A stretch of DNA of 64,000 nucleotides from an uncultured Bacteroidia bacterium (GTDB taxonomy: Bacteria; Bacteroidota; Bacteroidia; NS11-12g; UBA9320): positions 56,398 to 120,397 of the forward strand of contig CALSTB010000005.1 of NCBI GenBank assembly GCA_943789165.1, read 5' to 3'. Shown in pieces: positions 5,927-63,460 of this stretch (positions within the stretch are counted from its first letter, which is position 1; each line of letters begins with the position of its first letter). The translations under genes were made by a program, and so were the position numbers. The notes under the pieces are model-generated. The model was given only the letters and a program-made list of their open reading frames with translations. It did not search any database and was not told the DNA's origin.

Positions 5927-7543
5927 GTGAGGTGCTTATTGAAACATTTAAGTAAAAGAATAATGCAGCATGTAGATCAACAATTGGCAGTCTTTGCCAA
6001 AGGGCAAAAGAACAACAAAGGGAAGGCCATTACAGCGGTCATGTATACCCGTGTATCGACCAAGGAACAGGCCGATAACAATCAGAGTCTCTTTACGCAA
6101 GCAAAGCACATCAAGCAATTTGCAATGAACAATGATTTGCAGATAATAGGGGAATTTGGTGGGACTTATGAAAGCGCCAAGAGTGATGAACGGGTTCAGT
6201 TCAAACAAATGATTGCCTTTGTCAAAAGACATAAGGTAGATGCCATTGTGGTATACTCGATGGATCGCTTTTCAAGAAGTGGTCCCAATGCTATTTACAT
6301 TTCAGAACAACTCAGAAAGATAGGTACTGAGATTATATCTGTAACCCAACCTGTAGACGCCTCTACAGCTGCTGGGGAATTGCAACAGGGAATTTACTTT
6401 ATGTTCTCACAATATGAGAATCAGCAAAGGCGCTTAAAGTCCATGGCGGGCACCCGTGAAAAGCTATTACAAGGACATTGGGTTACCAAACCACCCTTAG
6501 GGTACAAGAAGATCACAGAAGGTGGACAAAAGAAAATAGTCATCACAAAAGAAGGTAGATTGCTGGCAGCAGCATTTAGAAGAAAGATTAAGTACAACTA
6601 CGAATTTACTGAAATTAGTAAGTGGCTGTCAACAAGAGGTCTAAAGGTGAGTCATAAAAGATTATCTGAGTTATGTAGAAACGTATTTTATTGCGGTTTC
6701 ATGGCCCATCAGGCATTAAATGGAGAGATTGTAAAGGGCAATCATGAAGGACTCATCACACGTAATGAGTTCTTGAAGCTGAATGGCATGCTTCAAATCA
6801 GACCTGCCAAAAAGCCAAAATCAAAAATGTTGGATCATCTACCCTTAAAGAGGCACATGCATTGCTCAAAGTGCAGCAAACCAATGACGGGTTACTTTGT
6901 GCGACCAAAGAAGTTATATTACTACAAGTGCAATACGAAAGGTTGTAAAGTCAATAGAAGTGCTAAGGTGTTAAACCGAAACTGGGAACAGACGCTTTCC
7001 AATCTTCAGATAGATGCAAAATACGTTACACCCATCCAAGAACAGCTCAAAAGAAAGCTCGAAAGCTTAAAAGAAGACTCTGGTGATGGGCTAAAACAGT
7101 ATCGCAGTAACAAAACAAAGGTTGAGAGGAAGATAGAGATGTTGGAAGAACGATTTGTAATAGGAGAAATTACCAAAGACTTATTTGATAAGTACGCTGC
7201 TAAATATAGAGAAGAATTGGTGGCAATATTAGAAGAAATCGACAAATGTGGAATTTCATTATCGAACCCTGATCAGGTAATCAAGCAGGCCACTGATTTG
7301 ATGTCTAAACTTCAGAAAACCTGGCAGTTATCAAAATCAACAGAAAGATCAAAGTTGCTTAAAGCGGTCTACCCAAGCGGAATTTGGCTTGATCCTGAAA
7401 ATAACAGTTATCGAACTTTTGGTTTGAACCCAGCGGTGCGCTGTATCCTAGATATAACGGGGAAATCCGTAGAAAAGGAAAAGCGGAATAGTGAAGATAA
7501 ACTCACATATTCCGCTTTGGTAGAGGGAATCAGAACGTTATAG
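5927..7543 (+). mobile_element. Large serine recombinase (resolvase/integrase family with recombinase domain and zinc ribbon)
   Basis: N-terminal catalytic motif VMYTRVSTKEQ...DRFSRS. The C-terminus carries CSKCSKPMTGYF...YYYKCNTKGC, a zinc ribbon typical of large serine recombinases, followed by a coiled-coil tail. Length is 538 aa. The true start may be an internal Met. Confidence 0.9.
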
Positions 7544-48603: not shown

Positions 48604-48638
48604 AGAGCCGTACAGCAATGTATGGCTCTTTTTTTTTA
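48604..48638. terminator. Bidirectional rho-independent terminator shared by atpG (+) and the convergent adhesin gene (-)
   Basis: agagccgtaca / tgtatggctct stem with loop gcaa, followed by TTTTTTTTT; the stop of the minus-strand gene lies inside the T-run. Confidence 0.7.
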
Positions 48639-51600
48639 CCAAACATGCAATACTCCCGAGTACACGTGTTTGGTTCCATCTATTGCGATGATGTCTATAT
48701 TCATCAAATACACACCTGGAAACAAGTCTTTGTTGATGAGGTTGTTTTTGTCTTTCGACTCAACCACCATTACCCCAAATCGGTCGTATAAGCTTAACTC
48801 AATACTTTGAATATTGTGGTTTGGCACAACGTTAAAAGATTCGTTGATGCCGTCGTTGTTAGGACTGTAGGTGTTTGGGATGTAGAATTCATACTCTCCA
48901 GATACAGTAGCCATGTTCTCTGTAGTGTCTAAACAACCTTCCTCAGATTCGATAATCAAACGGATGACATGTTCTCCGTTCTGGGTAAATAAGTGTATAA
49001 ATGAACCATCGTTTTGCTCCATCTCCGCATTGTCGATCGTCCAGAAATTACGCATATTGCGTATAGACGTATTGGTTATTTCCACTTCGAAACCATCAGA
49101 TTCTTTAACCTCAAATGACGCTTCTGGTTGTTCGTATACATCAATATCTACATAAGATGTGTCCACGCAAATTCCATTGCTCTCAACAATGAAAGCCACC
49201 TGCTTTTTCCCAGCTGTGGTATATGCATGAACCACACTATCTGTATAAAAAGACTGACCGTCAATCAACCAATTGTATGATTTATAATCACCAGTTATGG
49301 AAGAGTTGAAGGTGAATTCTGCGTTTGGTAGGCAGCCGCTTACCGTATTGGGTAAGATTGTCCCTTTGGGAGCTTCAATCACGTTTATGTTGACTGATAG
49401 TGTATCGCTGATGCAACCTTGACTGAACATAACAAATTTAACATTGTATTGTCCAGAGTCAGAATAACGGTGCGTATTTTGGGATCCATCGGATGAGAAA
49501 AAACTGTTGCCATCACCATAGTCCCAGTAGCTGGAATCTAAATCAAAGTCAAATTCAACATTGGTCTTTATAGTGACATTCAATGCTTCTTTAGGACAAA
49601 TGTTGTTTGCATGCACAACCATATTCGGCTTAGGTTTTGCCCCAACGTAAATCGTTACTTTACTAGAATCTGTACATTCATAATGTCTCGCAGTTACGGT
49701 AACGTCGTATTTGCCTTTGGTATATGCATGTGAGCTGTAAGGTAATATTGGGTTGGCTGTAGCCGTAGTTTGGTCGCCATAATTCCAGTGAATTTCTTGC
49801 GTTCCTCCTGTTCCGTTGCTGTGGGTTAATTGGTAATTGAAATCAACTGTAGCGATTGAATCACAGTAAATCGAATCCATAGGAAGAAATTGAATCGACG
49901 GTGTTGTAAGGATGTCGTAATACGCAGTATCTGTATGCACAACACATCCTAAATCAGTCTTTTGTTTGAAATAGACATAATCTTGATGCTTTAAGCTGTC
50001 TGTGCTATACACGATATCAGGTCCACCGATTATTTTATTACCATTCAGGTAAACCACATTTTCGGAGAAATAGGCAGAAGGTTTTGCTGTAATGGTGCTT
50101 CCGTAACACGCAACGACATCTGAACTTATGACACTAGCGCGTTTGACTGTTTCTATTGTAATGGCAGGAGAATAGGCGGCTTGGAACATGTCGGTTGCTG
50201 TTTGCGTAGATCTAATCCTAAATCTATAATTGGTAGCAGTTGTATCAGTTTCTGAAATCACATACGAGAAACTTCCGGTCGTTTGAGAAGAGATTAGGCT
50301 ATCAACAGGTGTAAAACTTGAAAAGGCACCAGATCCATCAGTCAATTCAAGAATAAATTGATTGCTTGCGTCTGGTGTAAACCACGTTTTAAATGGAATC
50401 AGAATCGTATCTGAATTACAATATAGGTTTCGGAAGCCATCGCTAAATTCTATAGGCGATTTGAAATGATTTGTTTGGTATTCTGTAAGAACAACATCTT
50501 CAGTGTCGAAATAGAGGCCTACTCTGTTCTGAACAAGCGTATCAACGAATATGTCTTTTTTAAGGGCAATACTAAAAGTCACACTGCCAATGCTCCCTGG
50601 TTCGTCGATAGATTTTGGTGGTAGATGTATGCCATTAAACTCAAACCAAAGGTGGTTCCCTTCTAAAATGTAGGCAAACTCGTGGCTACTTCTGTGGACT
50701 TGCAAAGTCGACAAATCAAATAAGTCCGATAGTGTGTCTCTTACAACCACATCGATGGCCGACGCTGTTCCTTCGTTTTGAAATTCTACCGTATACGTTA
50801 AGCGTCTATCTGTAACCGTGAAAATGCTATCTGGGTAAGCGGTTTTGATATTTGGGTCGTATGGCGCAACCACAACTAACACCGCTGTGTCTGCGTTGTT
50901 GGTTCTATTCCCATCATTTTTAGTAGACGAAGAATCACTCGAAGCGATGAAGGAAATTTTATTACCAACTGAAAGTCCTTTTGTCGCCAAATACAATGAC
51001 AAACGATGATTTACGTTTGGTAAAAGGTTGTACACCGTTGTTTGATAGGTCCCAGATCCCAATGAAGTCCAAGATTTGTGACTCTTAGATAAAGTCGCAA
51101 TATTGTTTGCGGTTTCAACAGTGATGACAGCGCTATCAATAACGGATATGCCTTTGTTGCTCACCACTAAGTTGGCGTAACAATCTGTTCCTTTTCTAAC
51201 AGTTGTGCCTGAACTAAAGCCCAGTTTGACATCAAGGTCTGTAATGGTTTTATGGTAGTTAATAAAGGTATCGATGTGCTTTGTTTCATTTGCGGAGAGC
51301 GAAATAGAAATGGATTTTGTACATCTGTTTTTCCAGATACTCGTGTCGTTAACGAGGGAAATCGCGTACTTACCCGAATCTAAATTAAACAAATAGTAAC
51401 CATCCTTATCTGTAGTCACGTAGTGATTACCAGGCTGTGCGACTACCATTTGACCTCGAATTGGTTTTGAACTAGAATCTATCTTACAAGACGTGCCACC
51501 AGTATACACGTAGCCAGCAATACCATCTTTTAGTTTTGAGTAAAACACAATGTCATGAATCGAATCTTTCTGAATTTGTATTGTGTCAGAAGCGCACTGG

Positions 51601-53105
51601 TCTACATACCACGGACTTGGCATTAATGAAGCGACAGTAGTTCCTGTATCCACACAAAATGCAAAACCCCCATTTGACTCTGTGTATTGATAATACCCTT
51701 GATTCGAAAAGCCTACTTTCCGAATGTGCCGTAAACTATCTTCCCCCGTGTTTTGGGTGCAATTGCTATTGATGTCGTTTAGCGTGAATCCATGCACTTT
51801 CCCAGTAGCGTTTGTTGTGTCAAACTGTAATCTGTAAACGTAAGTGGATACCGCATTTAAAGGGCACGCATTGTCACGTATCGTAATAGGAAATACGAGA
51901 GGGTGTTGTGTTAACTTGGTTAAATCGACCTTTGCTATATCTAAACATATTTCAGCAGCGGGGTTGGTGTCTGTGGGATTAAGAATGTGGAAAGTAACAC
52001 CATAAGGTAGTGTTGGAGGTACGAATGAAACGGTATCCGCAGGAGGTGCCGCAAATGGAGGTGGAGGGACTAAAACCTTATCGTACGTTTGTATCGTAAA
52101 GCAATATTCTTCCATGCATGGCGTCAGCTTTATAGTCTGTATTTTTTCACCTTTAATAATTGGCGGATTGTTTCCAGGGCATAGTGTCGTGATGTATTGC
52201 ATGTCACGTCTCGTTATGCCAATCTTTCTATAAGTACCAGCTGAATCCTTGCGCCACTCTGTAATTTCCAACACGGCAACAGTGATTTCGTCACACTTTG
52301 TAGGTGTCCAAATCATTGACCCATTGGCTTCATCTAAATAGATACCAATTGGAGGAGTTGCATTTGGATTGTTGTAAGGATACTTTAAAGTCCCGGGGTA
52401 ATATACTTGAAAAGGCTGCTCAAAAGTATAATTACCACTGTACGAGATTTTATTGTTATATCCTCTCAATGGATTTGCAAACGAATAGGATAAAGAATCA
52501 AAGTCTGTTAGATCGAAACCACCAACCGAAGAATAACTAGGTTGGTTGCAACACAACTGTCCAATTGGAGGATATAAAAACTGTGGAGAATTGTTAACCG
52601 GAGCCTCACACAGATTAATCAAAGCATAGGTATAGAAATTCTGATTTGCAGCACCAGTGTTGATGTTACTATTGCGACAGCATTGACCTGTCTCTAACCG
52701 TATTTCACATGTTCCATTGGAAAGTAAATTACTGTAAGGTGCTTTTTTGAAATCTACACTAACTGTATAAGTGTGCGCTTCAATGCCATCACCCGTTCTA
52801 CTAGTGTTTGAAGGATAACACCTTGCACTTGCTGATTTACATAAAGGTGTTACCTCTTTGATGGATTCAAGATTCAAGGATACGCCAACCTTTGTTCCAG
52901 TTTGTTGCGAAATAAACTGAGTGTTAGAACTTGGGTTGCTAACTGGAACTCCACCACAATAACGATAGTAAACTAATTTAAACGTATACGCATATGCCGA
53001 ATCACAGGTATAGGTAATATCGGCCCCCATAACGTGGGTAGCATATGACTTGCTTCCAATACCTAGGCATATTACGGTGATTAACAAACAAAGAAACTTT
53101 TTCAT
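48636..53105 (-). CDS. Large (1489 aa) cell-surface protein with PKD-like domains and a T9SS type-B C-terminal sorting domain
   Basis: Signal peptide. PKD motifs (WNYGDQT..., WDYGDGNSF...). C-terminal YEFYIPNTYSPNNDGINESFNV...GVYLMNIDIIAIDGTKHVYSGVLHVW matches the type-B CTD (TIGR04131-like). Confidence 0.8.
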   Translation of the reverse strand: MKKFLCLLITVICLGIGSKSYATHVMGADITYTCDSAYAYTFKLVYYRYCGGVPVSNPSSNTQFISQQTGTKVGVSLNLESIKEVTPLCKSASARCYPSNTSRTGDGIEAHTYTVSVDFKKAPYSNLLSNGTCEIRLETGQCCRNSNINTGAANQNFYTYALINLCEAPVNNSPQFLYPPIGQLCCNQPSYSSVGGFDLTDFDSLSYSFANPLRGYNNKISYSGNYTFEQPFQVYYPGTLKYPYNNPNATPPIGIYLDEANGSMIWTPTKCDEITVAVLEITEWRKDSAGTYRKIGITRRDMQYITTLCPGNNPPIIKGEKIQTIKLTPCMEEYCFTIQTYDKVLVPPPPFAAPPADTVSFVPPTLPYGVTFHILNPTDTNPAAEICLDIAKVDLTKLTQHPLVFPITIRDNACPLNAVSTYVYRLQFDTTNATGKVHGFTLNDINSNCTQNTGEDSLRHIRKVGFSNQGYYQYTESNGGFAFCVDTGTTVASLMPSPWYVDQCASDTIQIQKDSIHDIVFYSKLKDGIAGYVYTGGTSCKIDSSSKPIRGQMVVAQPGNHYVTTDKDGYYLFNLDSGKYAISLVNDTSIWKNRCTKSISISLSANETKHIDTFINYHKTITDLDVKLGFSSGTTVRKGTDCYANLVVSNKGISVIDSAVITVETANNIATLSKSHKSWTSLGSGTYQTTVYNLLPNVNHRLSLYLATKGLSVGNKISFIASSDSSSTKNDGNRTNNADTAVLVVVAPYDPNIKTAYPDSIFTVTDRRLTYTVEFQNEGTASAIDVVVRDTLSDLFDLSTLQVHRSSHEFAYILEGNHLWFEFNGIHLPPKSIDEPGSIGSVTFSIALKKDIFVDTLVQNRVGLYFDTEDVVLTEYQTNHFKSPIEFSDGFRNLYCNSDTILIPFKTWFTPDASNQFILELTDGSGAFSSFTPVDSLISSQTTGSFSYVISETDTTATNYRFRIRSTQTATDMFQAAYSPAITIETVKRASVISSDVVACYGSTITAKPSAYFSENVVYLNGNKIIGGPDIVYSTDSLKHQDYVYFKQKTDLGCVVHTDTAYYDILTTPSIQFLPMDSIYCDSIATVDFNYQLTHSNGTGGTQEIHWNYGDQTTATANPILPYSSHAYTKGKYDVTVTARHYECTDSSKVTIYVGAKPKPNMVVHANNICPKEALNVTIKTNVEFDFDLDSSYWDYGDGNSFFSSDGSQNTHRYSDSGQYNVKFVMFSQGCISDTLSVNINVIEAPKGTILPNTVSGCLPNAEFTFNSSITGDYKSYNWLIDGQSFYTDSVVHAYTTAGKKQVAFIVESNGICVDTSYVDIDVYEQPEASFEVKESDGFEVEITNTSIRNMRNFWTIDNAEMEQNDGSFIHLFTQNGEHVIRLIIESEEGCLDTTENMATVSGEYEFYIPNTYSPNNDGINESFNVVPNHNIQSIELSLYDRFGVMVVESKDKNNLINKDLFPGVYLMNIDIIAIDGTKHVYSGVLHVW

Positions 53106-53242
53106 GATGTGGTTTTACCTTACGCAAATTCGGTAAATTTTGACTCGAATCCTAGCAGCACACTTTGTCATAATTTCCACGTGACACAATAATTACATTC
53201 TAAAAAACGCTATTACTAATACCCTATTGAATTGAAATTGAA

Positions 53243-53995
53243 ATGTTTAGATTGTTGTCCTGTATGGTTTTGGTCTGCCTAGGTGTCACCTCCTATGGAC
53301 AAATCATCGTAGTTACCGATACGGTACCTCAAGAACACAGCCTTCAAGAAACACGTAGTACCCAAGTGCTTGAGCTTAAAATGCAACAGTTAGAACTCAA
53401 TAGAAAAATAGAGTTATTGCAGCGAGACACAACAGATCTAAACAAAGAAATTAATCTTCTAAAAAAAGAAAACACAGAGTTAGGGAATGAACTCAGTCAA
53501 TACAAAAATGGCATTTTCTTTGGCATCGGCTTTGGCTTTAATTACTTCACTAGTAGTCCACCCAAATATTACATCAAAAACGACAGCACCATTGGGGAGT
53601 ACGGAAACGAGAATGGCTTAAGCTTTATTTTAAGTGGATTTATGGCGTATAAAATCAAAGAAAAGCACAGCCTCATTTTTAATGTACCATTAGGTGACGT
53701 CACCAATAGAGAAGAGTTTAAGATTGGTTTGTTCAATCAAAAAATGGCTGGAGGAATAGGGTACGGCCGCAACCTGGGGAACGTATCCCTAATTTTTATC
53801 ATGAATATTAGTCCATACGAATCCATTGAGAAAGAACTGCTTTCTGAAGAAAAATTTGATATGGAGAAATACACCAAAATTGACCCAAGAGACTACCCAA
53901 GCACAACGCGGTATAGTCCGAGTTTTACCATTGGGTTTTCTTATAATTTTCAAAGTGGTGGGCAAATCAACCCAGCCAATCTGACGGGTTATTAG
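53243..53995 (+). CDS. Secreted hypothetical protein: signal peptide, coiled coil, beta-rich C-terminal half
   Basis: Signal peptide MFRLLSCMVLVCLGVTSYGQ. Coiled coil LELKMQQLELNRKIELLQRDTTDLNKEINLLKKENTELGNEL. A Gly/aromatic beta-rich region follows. Confidence 0.4.
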   Translation: MFRLLSCMVLVCLGVTSYGQIIVVTDTVPQEHSLQETRSTQVLELKMQQLELNRKIELLQRDTTDLNKEINLLKKENTELGNELSQYKNGIFFGIGFGFNYFTSSPPKYYIKNDSTIGEYGNENGLSFILSGFMAYKIKEKHSLIFNVPLGDVTNREEFKIGLFNQKMAGGIGYGRNLGNVSLIFIMNISPYESIEKELLSEEKFDMEKYTKIDPRDYPSTTRYSPSFTIGFSYNFQSGGQINPANLTGY

Positions 53996-55641
53996 GTCTG
54001 TAATACACCAACATTAAATGCCTCAACTGGTTGGTTGTTGGCCATTTCGATACCAGAAGATATCCAATCACGCGTATGTACGGGGTCAATAATGGCATCT
54101 ACCCACAATCGAGAAGCGGCATATTCTGGAGTTGTTTGTTCGTTATACCGATTAATGATTTTATCTAAAAGGCTTTTTCGTCTTTCGCAGTTATTTCTTC
54201 TCCAGTTTTCTTCAGCAGATGCTTTCTCGATTTGTAACAACACCTTGGCTGCTTGTTCTCCTCCCATTACCGCAATCTTGGCTGTTGGCCAAGCGACAAT
54301 CAAACGCGGATCATACGCTTTACCACACATGGCATAGTTGCCTGCTCCATAACTGTTGCCCATGATTATGGTAAATTTAGGAACTGTACTGTTGCTCATC
54401 GCATTCACCATTTTGGCACCATCTTTTATGATACCTCCTTGTTCAGATCGTGAACCAACCATAAAACCAGTTACGTCTTGTAAAAACACCAACGGAATTT
54501 TTTTCTGGTTGCAGTTCATGATAAACCGTGCTGCTTTGTCGGCAGAGTCGCTAGTAAATGACACCTCCAAACTGCATTTCTCCTTTTTTGGTTTTAACGA
54601 TTTGTCGGTTGTTGGCAACCACTACCAACTGCCCAGCCATTGATTCTACCAAACCCACAAATAATGGTTTTACCAAAATCTTTTTTATACTGTTCAAAAA
54701 CTCCGTCGTCCATTAACTGTGTGACAAGCGTGATTGAATCATAAGGCTTACCTCGATCATGCGGCATGATGCCATACAATTTCTTTTGGTCAGGAATGCT
54801 GAATTTCTTATCGCTGTGATTGAAGCCAGCTATTTCGAAACTACCAACCTTGTCCATCAAGAATTTTATTCGATCCAGACACTGCTTCGTCGTTTGGGAA
54901 CCGATCATCTATGACGCCAGACATTTCTGTTTGAGAAACGGAGCCTCCTAATGTTTCGTTGTCAATGGTCTTCTCCGATGGCTGCCTTTACCAAGATAGG
55001 ACTTCCTGCTAGGAAAAGACTGGAACCGGTTTTGTCAACGATTAGTGCCTCGTCTGCTCATAATCGGGTAGGTAGGCACCGCCGGCCACACAGCTGCCCA
55101 TTACGGCAGCAATTTGAGCGATGCCTTTGCTACTCAGTCATAGCGTTATTTCTAAAGATTCGACCGAAGTGTTCTTTGTCGGGAAGATTTCGTCTTGCAT
55201 AGGAAGATATACGCCTGCACTATCCACCAAATAGATAATGGGTAGCCTGTTTTCCAACGCAATTTCCTGAAACCGTAAGTTCTTTTTACCGGTGATTGGA
55301 AACCATGCACCCGCTTTAACCGTCGCGTCGTTTGCTACTATGATGCATTGACGGCCTTGTATCTTCGTAATGCCACCAACGACTCCCCCGGCAGGACAGC
55401 CTCCATGTTCGGCATACATACCATCACCCTGCATGCGCACCTATTTCCAAGAAAGTAGCGTCATCGTCCTTTAAGTAGTCGATACGCTCACGAGCCAGCA
55501 TCTTGCCTTTACTCTTTTTGTTTGGCTGCAGATTTTCCTCCTCCACCCATTTGATAGCACTTATTTGCCTATTGAGCTTCGAGACAAGTTGTCGGAGTCT
55601 TATCCTCGTTTCTTGTTAAATTCCAGTTGTTCTGCATTCAT
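53992..55641 (-). pseudogene. Acyl-CoA carboxylase carboxyltransferase subunit (propionyl-CoA carboxylase beta / methylmalonyl-CoA decarboxylase alpha family), fragmented by at least 4 frameshifts
   Basis: N-terminal MNAEQLEFNKKR... then [53 protein letters not shown] in another frame. The middle pieces are [19 protein letters not shown]... and LMDDGVFEQYKKDFGKTIICGFGRINGWAVG. The C-terminal piece is LVFLQDVTGFMVGSRSEQGGIIKDGAKMVNAMSNSTVPKFTIIMGNSYGAGNYAMCG. Confidence 0.8.
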
Positions 55642-55729
55642 ATTTCAAATATAGGATTCCCCTCGGGCTTCGCATTTCGCATTAAAAATAAATTTACCCA
55701 TTTTTTTAAATGAAAAGGAGTAAGAATGT

Positions 55730-55737
55730 TACTTTTG
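55730..55737 (+). promoter_or_regulatory. TACTTTTG -7 element immediately upstream of a hairpin/T-run unit
   Basis: tTACTTTTGcgc, the same 11-mer as at 21727. Confidence 0.3.
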
Positions 55738-55741
55738 CGCC

Positions 55742-55832
55742 GGCTGACACGACCAGCTCCCTTCGAACTCCCCCAGGGCAGGAATGCAGCAAGGGTAAGT
55801 AGGTTGTAGCGGTGCGATGTCAGCCTTTTTTT
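55742..55832 (+). ncRNA. Candidate small structured RNA or 5' attenuator: 8-bp closing stem enclosing approx. 68 nt, followed by T7
   Basis: ggctgaca (55742-55749) pairs with tgtcagcc (55818-55825). The enclosed region is GC-rich with internal ccc/ggg complementarity. TTTTTTT at 55826-55832 is on the + strand. It lies between a -7-like promoter motif and the fsa/tal start at 55943. Confidence 0.3.
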
Positions 55833-55942
55833 ATGGATTCATTTTTCTCTAAAATGGATTCTATTTCCAGATGACTTTTCTTAATTTTTTCAGGATTCAA
55901 TTGAAAAAAAACCGTTGATTTGCAGTCTAACAATTGTAACAA

Positions 55943-56599
55943 ATGAAATTTTTCGTCGACACCGCCAACTTAGACCAAATAGCAGAAGCACAAGATCTCG
56001 GAATCTTGGATGGAGTAACTACCAACCCATAGCTTGATGGCCAAAGAAGGTATTTCTGGAGTAGATAATGTATTAGCACATTACAAAGCCATTTGTGATA
56101 TCGTAGATGGGGACGTAAGTGCTGAAGTTATTTCAACCGATTTCGCTGGTATGGTGAGAGAAGGTGAAACTTGGCACAGATTGACGATAAGATAGTGGTT
56201 AAAGTTCCGATGATTAAGGATGGTGTAAAGGCGATTAGCTATTTCACCGACAATGGAATCAAAACCAATTGTACTTTGGTGTTTTCGGCTGGACAAGCAA
56301 TATTAGCAGCAAAAGCGGGTGCTACTTACTTGTCACCGTTTATTGGTCGTGTTGACGACATTAGTTGGGATGGTATGGAGTTGATTGAGCAAATCAGCAA
56401 TATTTATGCGATTCAAGGATTTTCAACACAAATATTAGCTGCGTCTATTCGCAACCCTTTACACATTGTAAAAGCCGCTGAAGCCGGCGCCGATGTTTGT
56501 ACCTGTCCATTAAGTTCAATCTTAGGATTGTTAAACCACCCATTAACAGATATAGGATTAGCAAAATTTTTGGCAGATCATCAAAAATCAAGCAACTAA
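55943..56599 (+). pseudogene. Fructose-6-phosphate aldolase / transaldolase (TalC/Fsa family) interrupted by at least 2 frameshifts
   Basis: [29 protein letters not shown] runs into a TAG stop. SLMAKEGISGVDNVLAHYKAICDIVDGDVSAEVISTDFAGMVREGET is in a second frame. IVVKVPMIKDGVKAISYFTDNGIKTNCTLVFSAGQAILAAKAGATYLSPFIGRVDD...GADVCTCP is in a third. Confidence 0.8.
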
Positions 56600-56621
56600 T
56601 CGGATAAGAAAAACGTTATAA

Positions 56622-56651
56622 AGAGCAACTACCTGTAGTTGCTCTTTTTTA
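56622..56651 (+). terminator. Rho-independent terminator after the fsa/tal gene
   Basis: agagcaacta / tagttgctct stem with loop cctg, followed by TTTTTT. Confidence 0.7.
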
Positions 56652-56669
56652 TTTATTATTACCCCGATT

Positions 56670-57392
56670 TTGAAAAACATCGTCATCATACCGACCTACA
56701 ACGAAATTGAGAATGTGGAACACATGATCAGGACAGTCATGTCTTTAGATTTCGAGGTTGACCTTCTCATTGTTGACGATAATTCTCCAGATGGGACAGG
56801 TACAAAAGTGACCGAGTTGCAAAAGGAGTTTGATAACCTGTTTCTAGAAACGAGAAAAGAAAAGAATGGATTAGGTACGGCCTATATCCATGGGTTTAAA
56901 TGGTGTTTGGATCATCAATACGATTTCATTTTTGAAATGGATTGTGATTTTTCACACAACCCCAAAGACTTAATTCGATTATGGGAAGCATGCCAAGACG
57001 AATCTGTGGGCGTTGCTGTTGGATCAAGATACGTAGACAATTTGGTAAACGTAGTTAACTGGCCAATGGGTCGGGTTTTACTTTCTTATTTCGCGTCTAT
57101 GTATGTTCGGTTCATTACACGGATGAAGATTATGGATACCACAGCGGGTTTTGTGTGTTATAAATCAGAAGTCTTAAAAGCCATCAACTTAGATAAAATT
57201 CGATTTAGAGGGTATGCGTTTCAAATTGAGATGAAGTTCACAGCACTAAAGCACGGTTTTAGTATCGTTGAGGTTCCAATCATCTTCACAGATCGAACCA
57301 AAGGCACTTCTAAAATGAGTAAAGGTATTGTTAAAGAGGCACTTTTAGGTGTCATTCAAATGAAGCTTCAAAGCTTTTTTAGGAAGTATTAA
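56670..57392 (+). CDS. GT2 family glycosyltransferase, polyprenol-phosphate mannose/glucose synthase-like
   Basis: IVIIPTYNEIENVEHMI ... DLLIVDDNSPDGT ... DCD; TTG start; 240 aa. Confidence 0.85.
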   Translation: MKNIVIIPTYNEIENVEHMIRTVMSLDFEVDLLIVDDNSPDGTGTKVTELQKEFDNLFLETRKEKNGLGTAYIHGFKWCLDHQYDFIFEMDCDFSHNPKDLIRLWEACQDESVGVAVGSRYVDNLVNVVNWPMGRVLLSYFASMYVRFITRMKIMDTTAGFVCYKSEVLKAINLDKIRFRGYAFQIEMKFTALKHGFSIVEVPIIFTDRTKGTSKMSKGIVKEALLGVIQMKLQSFFRKY

Positions 57393-57576
57393 AGCCGTCC
57401 CAAAATAGGAATGACCATCGCCGTATTGGGAATTATTCCACTTTTATTTAAAAAGTAACATCTTGTAAGGAGCACGTAGTCAGCGTGTTGTATATTAGTT
57501 TTTCTTTGGTAAGCTAGTTGTAAACCCTATGCTGTAGTCAAAGTGTGCCGTGTGCATACTTTTTAATTATAGTCGC

Positions 57577-60500
57577 ATGATTAAAGATTTTTACCACAAC
57601 GGTGTTAAAACGCTTACCGTTATTCTTTGCGTTTTGTTTTCAAGTCATTTTGTTTCTGCCCAATCTTGTGGCAGCATATAGTTAGGAGATGATGTCGAAG
57701 TGTGTTCTGGAAGCTCAGCAACACTAACACCTACCGAAGATTTTAAGTTATCTGGAAATTTGGAAAGCCTATTGGCATATAAAGGGGTGGTTTCTAACCC
57801 TAGCAATGCGTTAGGTGATCCTGATGGTTCTGGTGCTTACTTCTGCAGAGGAAATTCAGGAACATATACGGGCGCTGTTTGGTCGGTCCCATGTAACCTA
57901 CCTTCTGGAACCAAGTTGAAAATTAGAGTGAAGGTGCCGTCTGGTACTGCTTACTTCAAGGTCTATGGAGCGAAAGATAACTATTCCTATAGCTCAGACT
58001 ATACATTAATTGCCTGTAAGTATGTGTCGGGTAGTTCATACCAAGACATATGTGTAACCACCAACGGTGAGTTTAATATATTAAAGATTTTAGATCAAGG
58101 TTGTTCTCCTTTTAAGGTGGACGCGATCACATTTGAGAAAACATGTACGGCGACCTATTCATGGAGTTCAGGTCAAACGACCAAATCCATTACTGTTAGT
58201 CCAACAACCACAACTTCGTATGTCTTAACCGCATCTTTATGTGGAAACACGCTAAAAGATACTATTGAGGTAGCAGTTAAAAGTTGCAATTCGGGTGATC
58301 CAACGTGTTCGAAGGTCGTAGGAAATACAAGAGGATGTTCAAGCAAGCCTTATGTTATTTGGTTAAAGGATAAAAATGGAAGTGCGCATTATTTGAGTGG
58401 TGATTCTACGGATTATAAATGGTACGAATACAGTAATGGAGATGCAAAATTGATAGCTACTGGAATAAGTGCTTCAGGATTGTCTGGAACATTCGATGTA
58501 GAGTTAATGTTTGCTGGGATGACTTCAACCCCTCCAACGAATAGTCCAAAGTATAGTTCATGTTTTAGTGTTGGGAGCACAACGGGTTGGAATTATTTTA
58601 CCACGACAACCGGGACTTTAACTTCAACCAATTACGGTACAATGTCGTTATCCAGAAAAGGGCCAGCGGCTCAAATTGGTGACGGAGCAAACATTACACA
58701 AGATGGTTATGGGGCATCAGGTTGGTTTAATATTACTGGTGGAACTGGACATATTACAACAGGTGATTTTAATGTAATGCTAAGCGGGTGTATTATACCT
58801 ATAATTGAGACATCAGTTTGCGTTGACGATACATTAAGCTTGTGTATTGATGATCTTGTAAACTTAGATAGCATTTACGGAGAAGACGTGACAGTACAAG
58901 CAAGTACCACGACTTCTAGCGGTGCGAAAGTAACAGTTGAAACAGGGAGTTATACGATGGGTGTTGATTGCTGCAACGGCAACAAGCCAAATGCAATTAC
59001 ATACCAGTACGTTTCAAGCAATAAAATTGACAACAGTCAGACTAATAGCAATGTAACAACCTATACAAACCCTAATGGAGCAAAGGCACTAATTATCGTT
59101 AGTGGAAACTCTACAGCGTCGGATACGTCAAATCCGTTGTATAGAGGCTACGTTGATGCAGGAGAAAAGTTTACGGTTATTAGATCACAATCTAACAAAT
59201 GGCAAGCCAATCACTACATAAGAATTATGTCAGCCGATGGTTCGAGTTTGTTGCAATTTTCTAATATCCATGTGTCATGTAGCCAGCCTTTAGTTTCTGG
59301 TGAACAGTTTGGAAATATTGTAATTTCATCAGTGACTACAAACGGGTCAACTTGTTCGGGAGGAGCACCTGACTGCGAATCTTCTATCACATATATTCCT
59401 GCAAATGGTTTTGTAGGCTTAGATACAATCAGCTTTGAAGTGTGTACATCCGGTGCTAATTCATGGTGCAGTGAGGTTCCAATTGTAGTTGATGTGAAGA
59501 ATTGTACAGTGTCTCCAGAATGTAAATCAATTGTTGGAAATACAAGAGGTTGTGCCAATACACCGTATGTCATTTATTTGGTTGATAAAAATGGGGCGGC
59601 ACATCACCTTAAAGGTGACTCAACGGCTTACGAATGGAATGTGTATACCAATGGTACAGCTCAGTTTACAGCCAGTGATATTTCTGCATCGGGCTTAAGT
59701 GGCACTTTTGATGTCGATTTAACCTTCTCTGGAGCGACAACAACACCTCCAACGAATAGTCCAAAATACAGCTCATGTTTTAGTGTAGGTAGTGTGAATG
59801 GATGGGTATATTACCCAACTACAACAGGTACTATTACTTCAACAAGCTATGGAACAATGTCAATCAGTCGCCAGGGACCTTCGTTCCAAGTTGGTGATGG
59901 TGCGAATATTACCCAAGATGGTTACGGTGCTAGTGGATGGTTAGCGGTGACAGGTGGAAATGGCCACATTAAAGCTGGGGACATAAACATTATGTTGACG
60001 GAAGAATGTGACACCAATTCTGAATGTGATGAGACTCACACATTTGATCCATGTATCGTAACGTATGGTAAAGGGTCGTACAACAATTCATCAACAACCA
60101 TTTCAATCACACAAACGGTTTCTGAAATTAAAGAAATTGTTGTGGAAGGAATTTATAAAGGTGGACAGCCTACAGGTGGAAGCTTTACCAATGGGTCAAC
60201 TACTGTGAATTGGTCTAGCTCAGATGCGAAAGCACTTGACAATGTTTCAGGTACTACCGATAAAGGATATTATCAAGCAACCTTGCCAGCAGCTTCATCT
60301 GTAACTATGAATGTATCTAACAACCAAAGCAAAATGCATGGTATGGCGGCTTACGTTGTGATGAAAGACGAATTCTGTGCAGACAACTTTACATCAGTTT
60401 CTGATGAACGTTATTATACGTATCACAACACACAAACATCGACGTTCTCGATGCCAGCGACCATCAACGAAAAAACCATTACTGCAGTTTTACCAATTGC

Positions 60501-61446
60501 AGAAATGAACAACGATACGCGTATTGCAGTATTTACATTAACAGCTGGTAGTGCTTCAGAATCGGTAACGATTAATTCATACGACCTTGGTCGATCAATG
60601 ACTTTACAAACCTTAACGTTGAACGACGTACCGGGTGGCGTAACAAGTGCAACCTTAACTATGAGCTCTCCATCTTCAAATGGTGATAGCTATGTAACAG
60701 GTAGTGCAATGTTTAACTGGTATTTACCATGTGAAACCAACTCAGGTAAAAATAGAATTGCAGGAACTGTATTCTTTGACGCTGATAGAGATACAACGTT
60801 GGACAACGACGAGGACGGAGAGCCAGGTGTAATGGTGTATTTGTATGACGACAAGGATGATGATGGTATGTTTGACGACAACGAGTTGACGCCAATCGAC
60901 AGCATGTTATCCGGATCAGATGGAACATTTGAATTCTTCGTAGACTACGTGTGCAACGAAGGTTATATCAACAACTTAGAGTACCAATCGAGCATAGACA
61001 ACCCAAGCAATATGTTGGGCGAACCTGACGGGGATTATGCAACGTATAACAACAACGCGGACAATCTAATTGTTGAGTTGGATGGTACGATTAAAGACGG
61101 CGAAACGTATTCTATATTCTTAAGAACGATTGAGACTGGAGCGTATGCGATCATCAGTGAGTCAACGGATGGTATTAATTTCTATCACAACGACAACATT
61201 GCCATCTTAACTTCTTCAAGCGGAGAGTATACAATCACGGCAGATAGAGACGTGAATTTCATCAAATTCGATAAGAACTCGATCAATACAATTTCTGGAT
61301 ATAATTCATATGGAAGTACGAGTACTAACTCAGCCGATTACGGTATCCACGGAATCGAATTCTGTAAAGGCATCAATAGTTTTCTTAATCGATACGGATT
61401 TAAATACGTACCCAGCAAATACAGAGTTGACTACGGACAATTATGA
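57577..61446 (+). CDS. Giant T9SS adhesin, part 1: signal peptide, in-frame TAG at 57679-57681, two approx. 170-aa internal repeats, SdrD-B-like domain
   Basis: MIKDFYHNGVKTLTVILCVLFSSHFVSAQSCGSI, then TAG, then LGDDVEVCSGSSATL... in the same frame. The repeats are CSKVVGNTRGC...MLSGC and CKSIVGNTRGC...MLTEEC. GTVFFDADRDTTLDNDEDGEPGVMVYLYDDKDDDGMF is SdrD-B-like. Confidence 0.6.
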
Positions 61447-63460
61447 ATATGCTCAGTTTGATGGTCCGAACCAAGAAGATGTAGGAAACGACTACGGCTT
61501 TAACGGTCCAGTTGAAATGAGTGGTTATGTATTCTACGATACAGATTCTAGTGGAACATTTGATAACGGTGAATCTGGAACACCAAATATTACTGTGTTC
61601 TTATTCCCTGATTTAGACAACGATGGTGTATTGGATTTAGCTGAGAGCTTGTTGTTGATCACTTCAGTTGAAACGGATCAGAATGGATACTACGAGTTTG
61701 AAAGAGATTACATCGCAGACTTGTTGAATCTTCCAGATGGTTTGTTGAATTCGTACATCATTACTACGGATAGAAATGACTATCCAGCTAACTCATCTTA
61801 TACAACAGACAATCAAGAGGAAGCGGAATTTGATGGTTACGGTCAAGAAGATCCTGACAATAATTTTGGTCACGTACAAAGTGCACCATTAAATTACTGT
61901 GGTAAATTAGAAATTACCATCGATAAGAATAAAGTAGATGGTTCTTCAGGACATGAAAATTTCCCTGTGTATTTAGACTTAACTCACAGCGCATTTAAAT
62001 ACAGACAAAACTGGCCTTATAGCTGGGATCAAGGAATGTTCAATCCAAACGGATACGATGTTCAGGTGTGCAACGCAAATGGTGATGAATTACCAATTGA
62101 AATCGTTGGATACGATTCTACTTCTGGAAACATTAAAATGTGGGTTCAGGTAGATAAATTGTCGTCTACCGACAATACAATCTTAACCGTTAAACATGGT
62201 GTTTCTTCCGGAACAGTTTCTAATCCAAGTACAACGGCTGTTTGGGGGTCTGATTACAAAGCGGTTTACCACTTTGAAGACCTGAATGATGCAACAAGCA
62301 ACGATAATGATGCAACTAATTACGGTTCGTCATTGGCAACTGGTCAGATCGGTTCTTCTGTAGATCTTGATGGAAACGATCACTTACTTGTACCTTATAG
62401 CTCAAGCTTGGATATTGGTGGTAAGAAATTAACCATGTCGGCTTGGGTAAATGTAGCACCATCTCCTTCATCGGATGCACCGTTTGCAGTGAAAGGACCA
62501 ACAGTAAACCAAGAGGCTTATATGTTTGGTGTAGATGGAGGGACAAATCCAGTGAAGATTAATTCTCGTGTGACGACAAACAATGGTCATTACCGACATG
62601 ATGATGGAGCACTTGGAACAAATCAATGGGTGTACGTACAATTTGTATACGACGGTGATTTAGGATCTGGTCAAAAGAGTGTGTATGTAAACGGTAGCTT
62701 ATCACATACAAAATCAGCGTCAGGAGATATCAATACTGGTTCTCACGATTTATACATCGGAAAGCGTATTGGTTCTGACAACAGATACTTAACAGGTAAA
62801 ATTGACGAATTACGTATTACGTGTGCTGCAACAACGGCAGACTGGATATCAACCGAGTATAACAACCAATTGAGTCCAACCACATTTGCAACGATTACAG
62901 ATTCGTCTGGTTGTGGTGCCGTACCAGTAACTTGGTTAGAGTTTACAGCTAAAAAGGTAAGCGCAAATGACGTTGAACTTAACTGGTCAACAGCATCAGA
63001 AATCAACAACAGTCATTTCGAAGTTGAGCGTTCGTTTAACGGAACTGACTTTGTAACGATTGGAAGTCCAGTGCAAGGTGCAGGTAACAGTTCTCAAATC
63101 GAGCGTTACGACGCAATGGATTACGATTTGCCCGAAGGCGTTGCGTACTATAGAGTGAAGCAAATTGACTTCGATGGGCAATATGATTATACACCAGTTA
63201 GGGTTGTAGAAGTATTGAGTAGAAACGCGATGGTGGTGTATCCAAATCCAGCGAACAACGAAGTGAATATTAGTTTCAAAGGTGCCAAAGGTCAAGAGGT
63301 AGTGGTTACAAACCTTATGGGACAGGTTCTTGAAACGGTAGTATTATCTCGAGAAGGTTTTGCAACCATCAATACAACAGATTATCCGCACGGTGTGTAC
63401 TTCATTGAAGTACAAGGTGCTAATATGGTTAGGACGCAAAAGTTCACCATAGAGAAATAA
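61310..63460 (+). CDS. Giant T9SS adhesin, part 2 (frame-shifted continuation): SdrD-B-like, DUF2341-like, LamG (concanavalin-like) domains, conserved pre-CTD domain, type-A T9SS CTD
   Basis: It overlaps part 1 by approx. 135 nt in another frame. The LamG motifs are LTMSAWVNV...NQWVYVQFVYDG...VYVNG...LYIGKRIG...GKIDELRIT. The pre-CTD domain is NWSTASEINNSHFEVERS...YYRVKQIDFDGQYDYTPV. The CTD is VVYPNPANNEVNISF...GVYFIEVQ...QKFTIEK. Confidence 0.6.
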   Translation: MEVRVLTQPITVSTESNSVKASIVFLIDTDLNTYPANTELTTDNYEYAQFDGPNQEDVGNDYGFNGPVEMSGYVFYDTDSSGTFDNGESGTPNITVFLFPDLDNDGVLDLAESLLLITSVETDQNGYYEFERDYIADLLNLPDGLLNSYIITTDRNDYPANSSYTTDNQEEAEFDGYGQEDPDNNFGHVQSAPLNYCGKLEITIDKNKVDGSSGHENFPVYLDLTHSAFKYRQNWPYSWDQGMFNPNGYDVQVCNANGDELPIEIVGYDSTSGNIKMWVQVDKLSSTDNTILTVKHGVSSGTVSNPSTTAVWGSDYKAVYHFEDLNDATSNDNDATNYGSSLATGQIGSSVDLDGNDHLLVPYSSSLDIGGKKLTMSAWVNVAPSPSSDAPFAVKGPTVNQEAYMFGVDGGTNPVKINSRVTTNNGHYRHDDGALGTNQWVYVQFVYDGDLGSGQKSVYVNGSLSHTKSASGDINTGSHDLYIGKRIGSDNRYLTGKIDELRITCAATTADWISTEYNNQLSPTTFATITDSSGCGAVPVTWLEFTAKKVSANDVELNWSTASEINNSHFEVERSFNGTDFVTIGSPVQGAGNSSQIERYDAMDYDLPEGVAYYRVKQIDFDGQYDYTPVRVVEVLSRNAMVVYPNPANNEVNISFKGAKGQEVVVTNLMGQVLETVVLSREGFATINTTDYPHGVYFIEVQGANMVRTQKFTIEK

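Follow-up and report, generated by a model that had tools for sequence, protein, structure and literature searches.

The element at 55730-55832 of the window, by which we mean the whole 64,000-nt stretch of DNA that was analyzed, is almost certainly ffs, the gene for the bacterial small SRP (4.5S) RNA, of an uncultured Bacteroidota lineage. SRP RNA is a universal housekeeping RNA that helps deliver membrane proteins, and ffs is an already known gene, so that the element is real but ordinary. The original prediction, which was made from the letters of the DNA, offered either an independent RNA of ca. 90 nt, with its own promoter and a T-run end, or an attenuator in the leader of the downstream fsa/Tal gene. 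The first of these was right in kind, though the RNA is ffs and not a novel sRNA. The result mainly aids annotation: it places an essential ffs gene and explains a puzzling structured intergenic element.

Layout and identity of the element

The features of the element, together with a second promoter-like box that lies outside the RNA, are as follows:

55730-55737, + strand: ffs −7 box of the Bacteroidota type, TACTTTTG (consensus TAnnTTTG); from the sequence and homologous loci
55742-55825, + strand: SRP (4.5S) RNA hairpin, spanning 84 nt with the outermost pair included; from the RF04183 match and covariation
55742-55749, + strand: 5' arm of the closing stem, GGCTGACA; from the sequence, the fold and compensatory changes among short-form homologues
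55753-55760, + strand: conserved 5' block CCAGCTCC, paired across bulges with GGTTGTAGCGG
55773-55777, + strand: 5' side of the helix-8 symmetric loop, CCAGG, which aligns with the Rfam consensus and would contribute to the binding site for the Ffh M domain
55781-55784, + strand: GGAA apical tetraloop (GNRA type), closed by GCA/TGC (55778-55780 with 55785-55787)
55788-55792, + strand: 3' side of the symmetric loop, AGCAA, which contains the universal AGCA; from the Rfam alignment and conservation
55802-55819, + strand: conserved 3' block GGTTGTAGCGG and then TGCGATG, with bulged bases; from conservation
55818-55825, + strand: 3' arm of the closing stem, TGTCAGCC; from the sequence, the fold and the short-form alignment
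55826-55832, + strand: T7 run, likely to form, with the closing stem, an intrinsic terminator and the 3' end of the RNA; from the sequence and homologous loci
55915-55922, + strand: TTGATTTG, which agrees with the −7 box at 7 of 8 positions and stands 20 nt ahead of the fsa ATG; a candidate promoter of fsa itself

The −7 box is followed by four bases (cgcc) and then by the closing stem, whose arms form a perfect 8-bp helix around 68 nt (55750-55817). The seven T residues stand directly 3' of the stem, and a 110-nt spacer separates them from the fsa ATG (55943). The box, the stem, its interior, the T run, and the gap to fsa were thus all found where the original prediction had placed them, and the ORF list of the window agreed with its statement that no + strand gene ends here, there being no + strand ORF end near the hairpin.

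The Rfam scan that the original prediction had proposed was run, and it identified the element as SRP RNA. Family RF04183 (Bacteroidales_small_SRP, clan CL00003) matched positions 55735-55829 of the + strand with a score of 72.6 bits (E value of 1e-14; the gathering score of the family is 55.2 bits), and the match, which was not truncated, covered model positions 1-107 of 107. RF04183 was the sole Rfam family at threshold in the whole 64-kb window. A permissive scan of 55400-56100 (E up to 1) returned SRP RNA only and no cis-regulatory RNA family. Every conserved block of the family was present, the only departures being in the terminal helix, from whose two strands 6 nt and 8 nt are deleted. 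The minimum free energy (MFE) and centroid folds were the same single hairpin.

A novel sRNA is ruled out by the Rfam match and the Ffh-binding motifs. A terminator of the neighboring − strand gene was also considered and ruled out, since it is the start of that gene (55641), and not its end, that adjoins the element. A literature search for descriptions of Bacteroidetes 4.5S RNA found nothing relevant, and an SRP54 domain (ffh) was absent from the 10 mid-sized ORFs of the window that were scanned, which says little either way; ffh would normally sit elsewhere in the genome.

Single features of the element were not beyond chance, while their ensemble was far beyond it. The TAnnTTTG motif, which is the −7 consensus of the Bacteroidetes primary sigma factor (PMC7366714), occurred 59 times in the window versus 70 expected, so the motif alone is not enriched. 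The main text of the same paper, on the B. thetaiotaomicron transcriptome (PMC7366714), holds no mention of 4.5S or SRP. The MFE was −33 kcal/mol, with z-scores of −1.37 for the + strand and −1.82 for the − strand, and fold stability was therefore uninformative, failing even to pick the strand. Scans for generic σ70 promoters and short-loop terminators called nothing at the element, as is to be expected of Bacteroidota promoters and of a hairpin that encloses 68 nt, both of which fall outside those patterns. A 45-nt core pattern, in turn, occurred once in the window, with 0 matches expected. Since the single features are weak, the case rests on homology.

Compared with the RF04183 family, the RNA from the window has the same full-length match, the same single hairpin, and the same core (CCAGCUCC...GAA...CCCCCAGG...AGCAAGGGUA...GGUUGUAGCGG), and its promoter and T-run context is that of the homologous loci. 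It differs in that its terminal helix is without 6 nt (5' strand) and 8 nt (3' strand) of the model, in that its host is not a member of the Bacteroidales, and in that no tRNA follows the gene, unlike what is often seen in Bacteroidales; there are no tRNA genes anywhere in the 64-kb window.

The E. coli 4.5S RNA (ffs) is one hairpin with a GGAA tetraloop and no Alu domain. Its symmetric loop (AGG on the 5' side, AGCA on the 3' side) and asymmetric loop bind the M domain of Ffh, and the 114-nt RNA is matured from a longer precursor by RNase P. The RNA from the window shares with it the single hairpin, the GGAA tetraloop, the AGG/AGCA symmetric loop, the asymmetric loop, and the lack of an Alu domain; the lower-stem sequence, in contrast, could not be aligned by eye, and the length of the RNA, with its ends as proposed below, would be about 88 nt versus 114 nt. 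The 55802-55819 block, which holds the ACGA/UGCGAU segment with its bulged bases, is presumably the equivalent of the E. coli distal site, as judged by its distance from the tetraloop; this nearly invariant segment is kept in the short form of the RNA. The UGUAGC block of Bacteroidota and the AUGUAGC block of E. coli were considered as positional homologues, an idea that was dropped since their distances from the tetraloop disagree.

By analogy with the family, transcription would start at ca. 55741-55743, a few bases past TACTTTTG and at the foot of the closing stem, and would end in the U run after that stem, giving an RNA from ca. 55742 to 55829, or about 88 nt. Little or no 5' leader is expected because the box stands so close to the helix. 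The G+C-rich closing helix and U7 would serve as the RNA's own intrinsic terminator. The RNA would fold into a single long hairpin whose apical part, domain IV, comprises the GGAA tetraloop, the symmetric loop (CCAGG/AGCAA), and the asymmetric loop next to it. Domain IV would, as its homology with E. coli 4.5S RNA suggests, bind the M domain of Ffh, and the tetraloop would speed docking of the receptor FtsY, as it does in E. coli. The lower part of the hairpin would then activate GTP hydrolysis, freeing the ribosome and the nascent membrane protein to the translocon.

Homologous loci and the shortened terminal helix

The core pattern, with variable positions left free, was run on contigs from one genome per species and recovered at least 120 loci. 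All of the matches listed came from Bacteroidota or Chlorobiota and shared the same hairpin, and their common layout was a TAnnTTTG box, a few bases, the hairpin, and then a T run or a tRNA gene. Among the matches listed, 112 loci had complete flanks; an upstream TAnnTTTG box was present in 101 of them, a run of at least four T residues downstream in 91, mostly exactly at the end of the terminal helix, and a tRNA gene downstream in 24. The box stood 19-23 nt before the conserved core in 79 of the 101 box-bearing loci among the matches listed. In the window, the distance from box to core is 15 nt and that from core to T run is 13 nt, both shorter because the terminal helix is without 6 nt (5') and 8 nt (3'); the 4-nt gap between box and helix is the same as in homologous loci. 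The element thus appears, from its sequence, to have its own promoter and a defined 3' end, as an independent RNA gene would.

The original prediction had called for stem covariation to be checked in related genomes, and strong covariation was found in an alignment of 65 Bacteroidota homologues. RNAalifold returned a hairpin of 25 pairs, with compensatory changes in 14 of them. Of the alignment cells, 97.2% were paired, versus 82.9% in shuffled alignments and at most 53% with slid partners; the covariation score was 0.451, versus 0.165 and at most 0.083, respectively, and 0 of 500 shuffles reached the observed value. The three pairs that close the tetraloop covary, one of them being represented by GC in 27 sequences, UA in 17, AU in 17, and CG in 4. 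CCAGG and AGCAA were identical in 65 of 65 sequences, as was the CCAGCTCC block at 55753-55760, all of these being letters that were fixed in the search pattern. The invariance of many core columns is therefore partly built in. The covariation is not circular, because the covarying pairs sit at positions left free in the pattern or outside it; the Rfam model, too, is independent of the pattern-based retrieval. Membership in the SRP RNA family, a covariation-backed fold, and conservation of the promoter and the T run are thus observed at this locus.

The length from helix to helix is 84 nt in the window versus a mode of 96-97 nt among the matches listed. The outer helix of the long forms, GGGUAAG/CUUACCC, and their small internal loop are both missing from the RNA of the window. 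Its 84 nt keep every column that is conserved in at least 90% of the 65 aligned sequences apart from one G and one C, both of which belong to the missing outer helix.

A metagenome scan with the window's own core led to a contig, L121, that is collinear with window positions 53181-58173. A protein search with the intact Fsa encoded by this contig then yielded close homologues of 86-100% identity, on contigs L122-L136; where the sources of these relatives are labeled, they are MAGs of a Flavobacteriales, Bacteroidia or Bacteroidetes bacterium. On every one of contigs L122-L136, ffs was located just upstream of fsa and had the same 84-nt short form. All relatives of this clade passed the RF04183 threshold, with scores of 71-81 bits. 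The substitutions seen among them kept pairing intact: a U-A pair beside the asymmetric loop became C-G in L126, a U-A pair of the closing stem became U-G in L135 and L136, and a compensatory change from C-G to U-A was found in L136 inside the otherwise invariant CCAGC/GCGG block (CTAGC with GCAG). In an alignment of the clade relatives and four Cyclobacteriaceae short forms, 99.3% of cells were paired, and 9 of 26 pairs showed compensatory changes, including closing-stem positions 1-4 and 6.

A shortened terminal helix was also observed in the Cyclobacteriaceae loci L010 (Lunatimonas), L042 (Algoriphagus), L058 (Mongoliibacter), L110, and L113 and in a further Bacteroidota genome, L098. Three of these (L098, L042, and L010) measure 78-82 nt from helix to helix and pass the RF04183 threshold. 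The short forms tested scored 63-81 bits against RF04183, all above threshold, and long forms scored 95-108 bits; the window's score is below that of the long forms because of its truncated terminal helix. The Cyclobacteriaceae RNAs (80 nt in L042, 82 nt in L010) resemble that of the window in their truncated terminal helix, and they also have fsa downstream on the same strand. They differ in that their closing stem, GGCGGCA/UGCCGCC, is one base pair shorter and in that they belong to another Bacteroidota order.

As judged from these alignments, the shortening removes only the outermost helix and the internal loop and is a feature of the lineage, in a gene that looks functional. A separate origin in the Cyclobacteriaceae is probable, since long forms prevail in the other lineages sampled. 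An SRP RNA of 80-84 nt without the outer helix is present in at least two Bacteroidota lineages, which helps to define the minimal functional RNA of the phylum. RF04183, despite its name, covers Bacteroidota well outside the Bacteroidales. Neither the short form nor the adjacency of ffs and fsa alters how SRP is understood.

Position of ffs upstream of fsa

Among the matches listed, fsa was found downstream of the RNA on the same strand in 34 of 122 loci, which belong to several Bacteroidota orders, and in 26 of these 34 it was located within 600 nt. No fsa was present downstream of the same RNA in the other 88 of the 122 loci listed. In all relatives of the clade, the gene order is ffs, fsa, GT2. 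As few as 13 nt separate the T run from the fsa ATG in L132 and L133 (GCA_020635355.1; site at 2391-2520 of L132), and about 22-35 nt do so in L082, L050, L018, and L057. L043 and L100 were grouped with the loci that have short ffs-fsa spacers (13-35 nt in several). Because these spacers are only 13-35 nt long, they leave no room for a −33/−7 promoter of fsa.

Where the spacer is this short, fsa probably owes its transcription to the ffs promoter, by read-through, or to a promoter within ffs. For the window, with its 110-nt spacer, an independent fsa promoter at TTGATTTG is plausible.

We also considered, as an addition to the identification of the element as ffs and not as its replacement, that the ffs terminator is leaky, so that part of the transcription from the ffs promoter would reach fsa and the glycosyltransferase gene, the SRP RNA being cut out of the longer transcript. 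Such an arrangement would agree with the conserved same-strand adjacency (34 of the 122 loci among the matches listed), with spacers that in several genomes are too short to hold a promoter, and with the gene order kept throughout the clade. On the other hand, seven U residues after a 13-pair G+C-rich stem should terminate transcription efficiently, spacers are longer and contain promoter-like boxes in the window and at many other loci, and gene order can persist without co-transcription. We therefore regard it as possible, but rather unlikely, that in many Bacteroidota outside the Bacteroidales, and perhaps in this organism, ffs forms the 5' unit of an ffs-fsa(-GT2) transcription unit. If true, a sugar-phosphate aldolase gene would be driven by read-through from the strong ffs promoter. 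The widely conserved adjacency of ffs and fsa, with very short spacers, offers a testable case of co-transcription of SRP RNA and mRNA. The B. subtilis scRNA gene (scr), which is located directly upstream of dnaX and on the same strand, offers a precedent for such read-through and is treated here as a lead; its product is of the large SRP RNA type, with an Alu domain, and its downstream gene differs from fsa.

The second option of the original prediction, in which the hairpin is a dedicated regulated attenuator or riboswitch-like leader that controls fsa, is not supported and appears highly improbable. The link to fsa that it proposed does stand as far as gene order goes, for the same adjacency and the same short gaps (13 nt in two loci, about 22-35 nt in others) that bear on read-through could be cited in its favor; the dedicated attenuator does not. 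The RNA is kept in the 88 of 122 loci among the matches listed that have no downstream fsa, and in 24 of the 112 listed loci with complete flanks a tRNA gene comes next. The sole Rfam match is to SRP RNA, the covarying pairs are all in one hairpin, and the MFE fold equals the centroid fold, with no antiterminator alternative. The unpaired bases that are conserved make up the Ffh-binding motifs. In the window, the spacer contains a TTGATTTG box of its own, 20 nt ahead of the fsa ATG, and there is no leader-peptide ORF between the promoter and the stem, the two being only 4 nt apart.

Broken neighboring genes and other features of the window

Both genes that flank ffs are broken in the window:

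55943-56599, + strand: fsa (fructose-6-phosphate aldolase), with an extra base at ca. 56029 and a missing base at ca. 56166, split into three ORFs
53992-55641, − strand: divergent acyl-CoA carboxyltransferase gene, which codes for 544 aa when intact and is in at least four ORF pieces in the window

Both are intact in L121 and in most contigs of the same species, and the intact Fsa orthologue of L121 (218 aa) matched TIGR00875 with 275 bits, against a cut-off of 246. When the window was compared with L123, to which it is otherwise identical over 51929-60000, all 79 differences fell within 54000-56175. Some 55 of them are substitutions; the 24 indel positions are mostly bases that the window has in excess, and many lie outside homopolymers. 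The RNA, the promoter, and the T run had zero differences from L121 or from the same-strain L123. The RNA and its immediate flanks were identical in L121-L125, and the adjacent 1.6 kb differed from those contigs at about 5% of positions. In L122 and L128, which are from the same or a sister species and have long-read-style contig names, the carboxyltransferase gene is broken at other places.

We read 54000-56175 as more probably a locally poor consensus than gene decay. The stretch is either an error-dense consensus or very recently decayed, and in either case the ffs finding is unaffected. That the element could be a decaying, non-functional copy of ffs in a degraded stretch, the true gene being located elsewhere, is suggested by the two broken neighbors and by the clustering of all 79 differences around it; this reading was rejected as having next to no likelihood, since none of the 79 differences lies in the RNA, the promoter or the T run, five other assemblies, in which the flanking genes are unbroken, have an identical sequence, the hairpin has lost none of its pairs, ffs sits at this locus in all relatives, and the different breaks of the carboxyltransferase gene in L122 and L128 point to sequence error.

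Several further observations were made in the window and its relatives. The divergent carboxyltransferase gene has a perfect −7 box, TATATTTG (55653 to 55646, − strand), only 4 nt before its ATG (55641-55639), a position which implies that the mRNA would be leaderless or nearly so.

At 48636-53105 of the window, the − strand carries a gene for a 1489-aa protein, between ORFs of 526 and 294 aa and a gene for a 250-aa protein. The 1489-aa protein has a C-terminus that, by eye, resembles a type IX secretion / CHU_C sorting domain. In length, the 526- and 294-aa ORFs equal the genes for ATP synthase alpha and gamma in L126. Since the gamma gene abuts the 250-aa gene in sister-species contigs (L126, L129, and L131), the 1489-aa gene is a lineage-specific insertion.

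Downstream of GT2, the window contains a large surface-protein gene (57700-63460). Compared with L121, it has about 20% substitutions (67 in 57750-58173) and no indels; L122 was also compared. Its neighbors, the carboxyltransferase gene excepted, are nearly identical, and the diverged gene among near-identical neighbors therefore marks a hypervariable surface locus. The ORFs at 57700-61446 and 61310-63460, which overlap by 137 nt, may be one frameshifted gene. Also downstream of GT2, an IS element with HTH_Tnp_1 and rve transposase genes was found in L122, L124, and L125 (6322-7658). It is absent from L123, and hence from the window, which is identical there, so that the insertion is polymorphic at the strain level.

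An exact-sequence look-up of two window proteins gave no match; the start codons of the two ORFs may be wrong, because the ORFs exceed the gene calls of the same species. At 5927-7543 (+ strand), a 538-aa large serine recombinase with Pfam Resolvase and Recombinase domains is encoded, a possible sign that a mobile element has integrated in this first part of the window.
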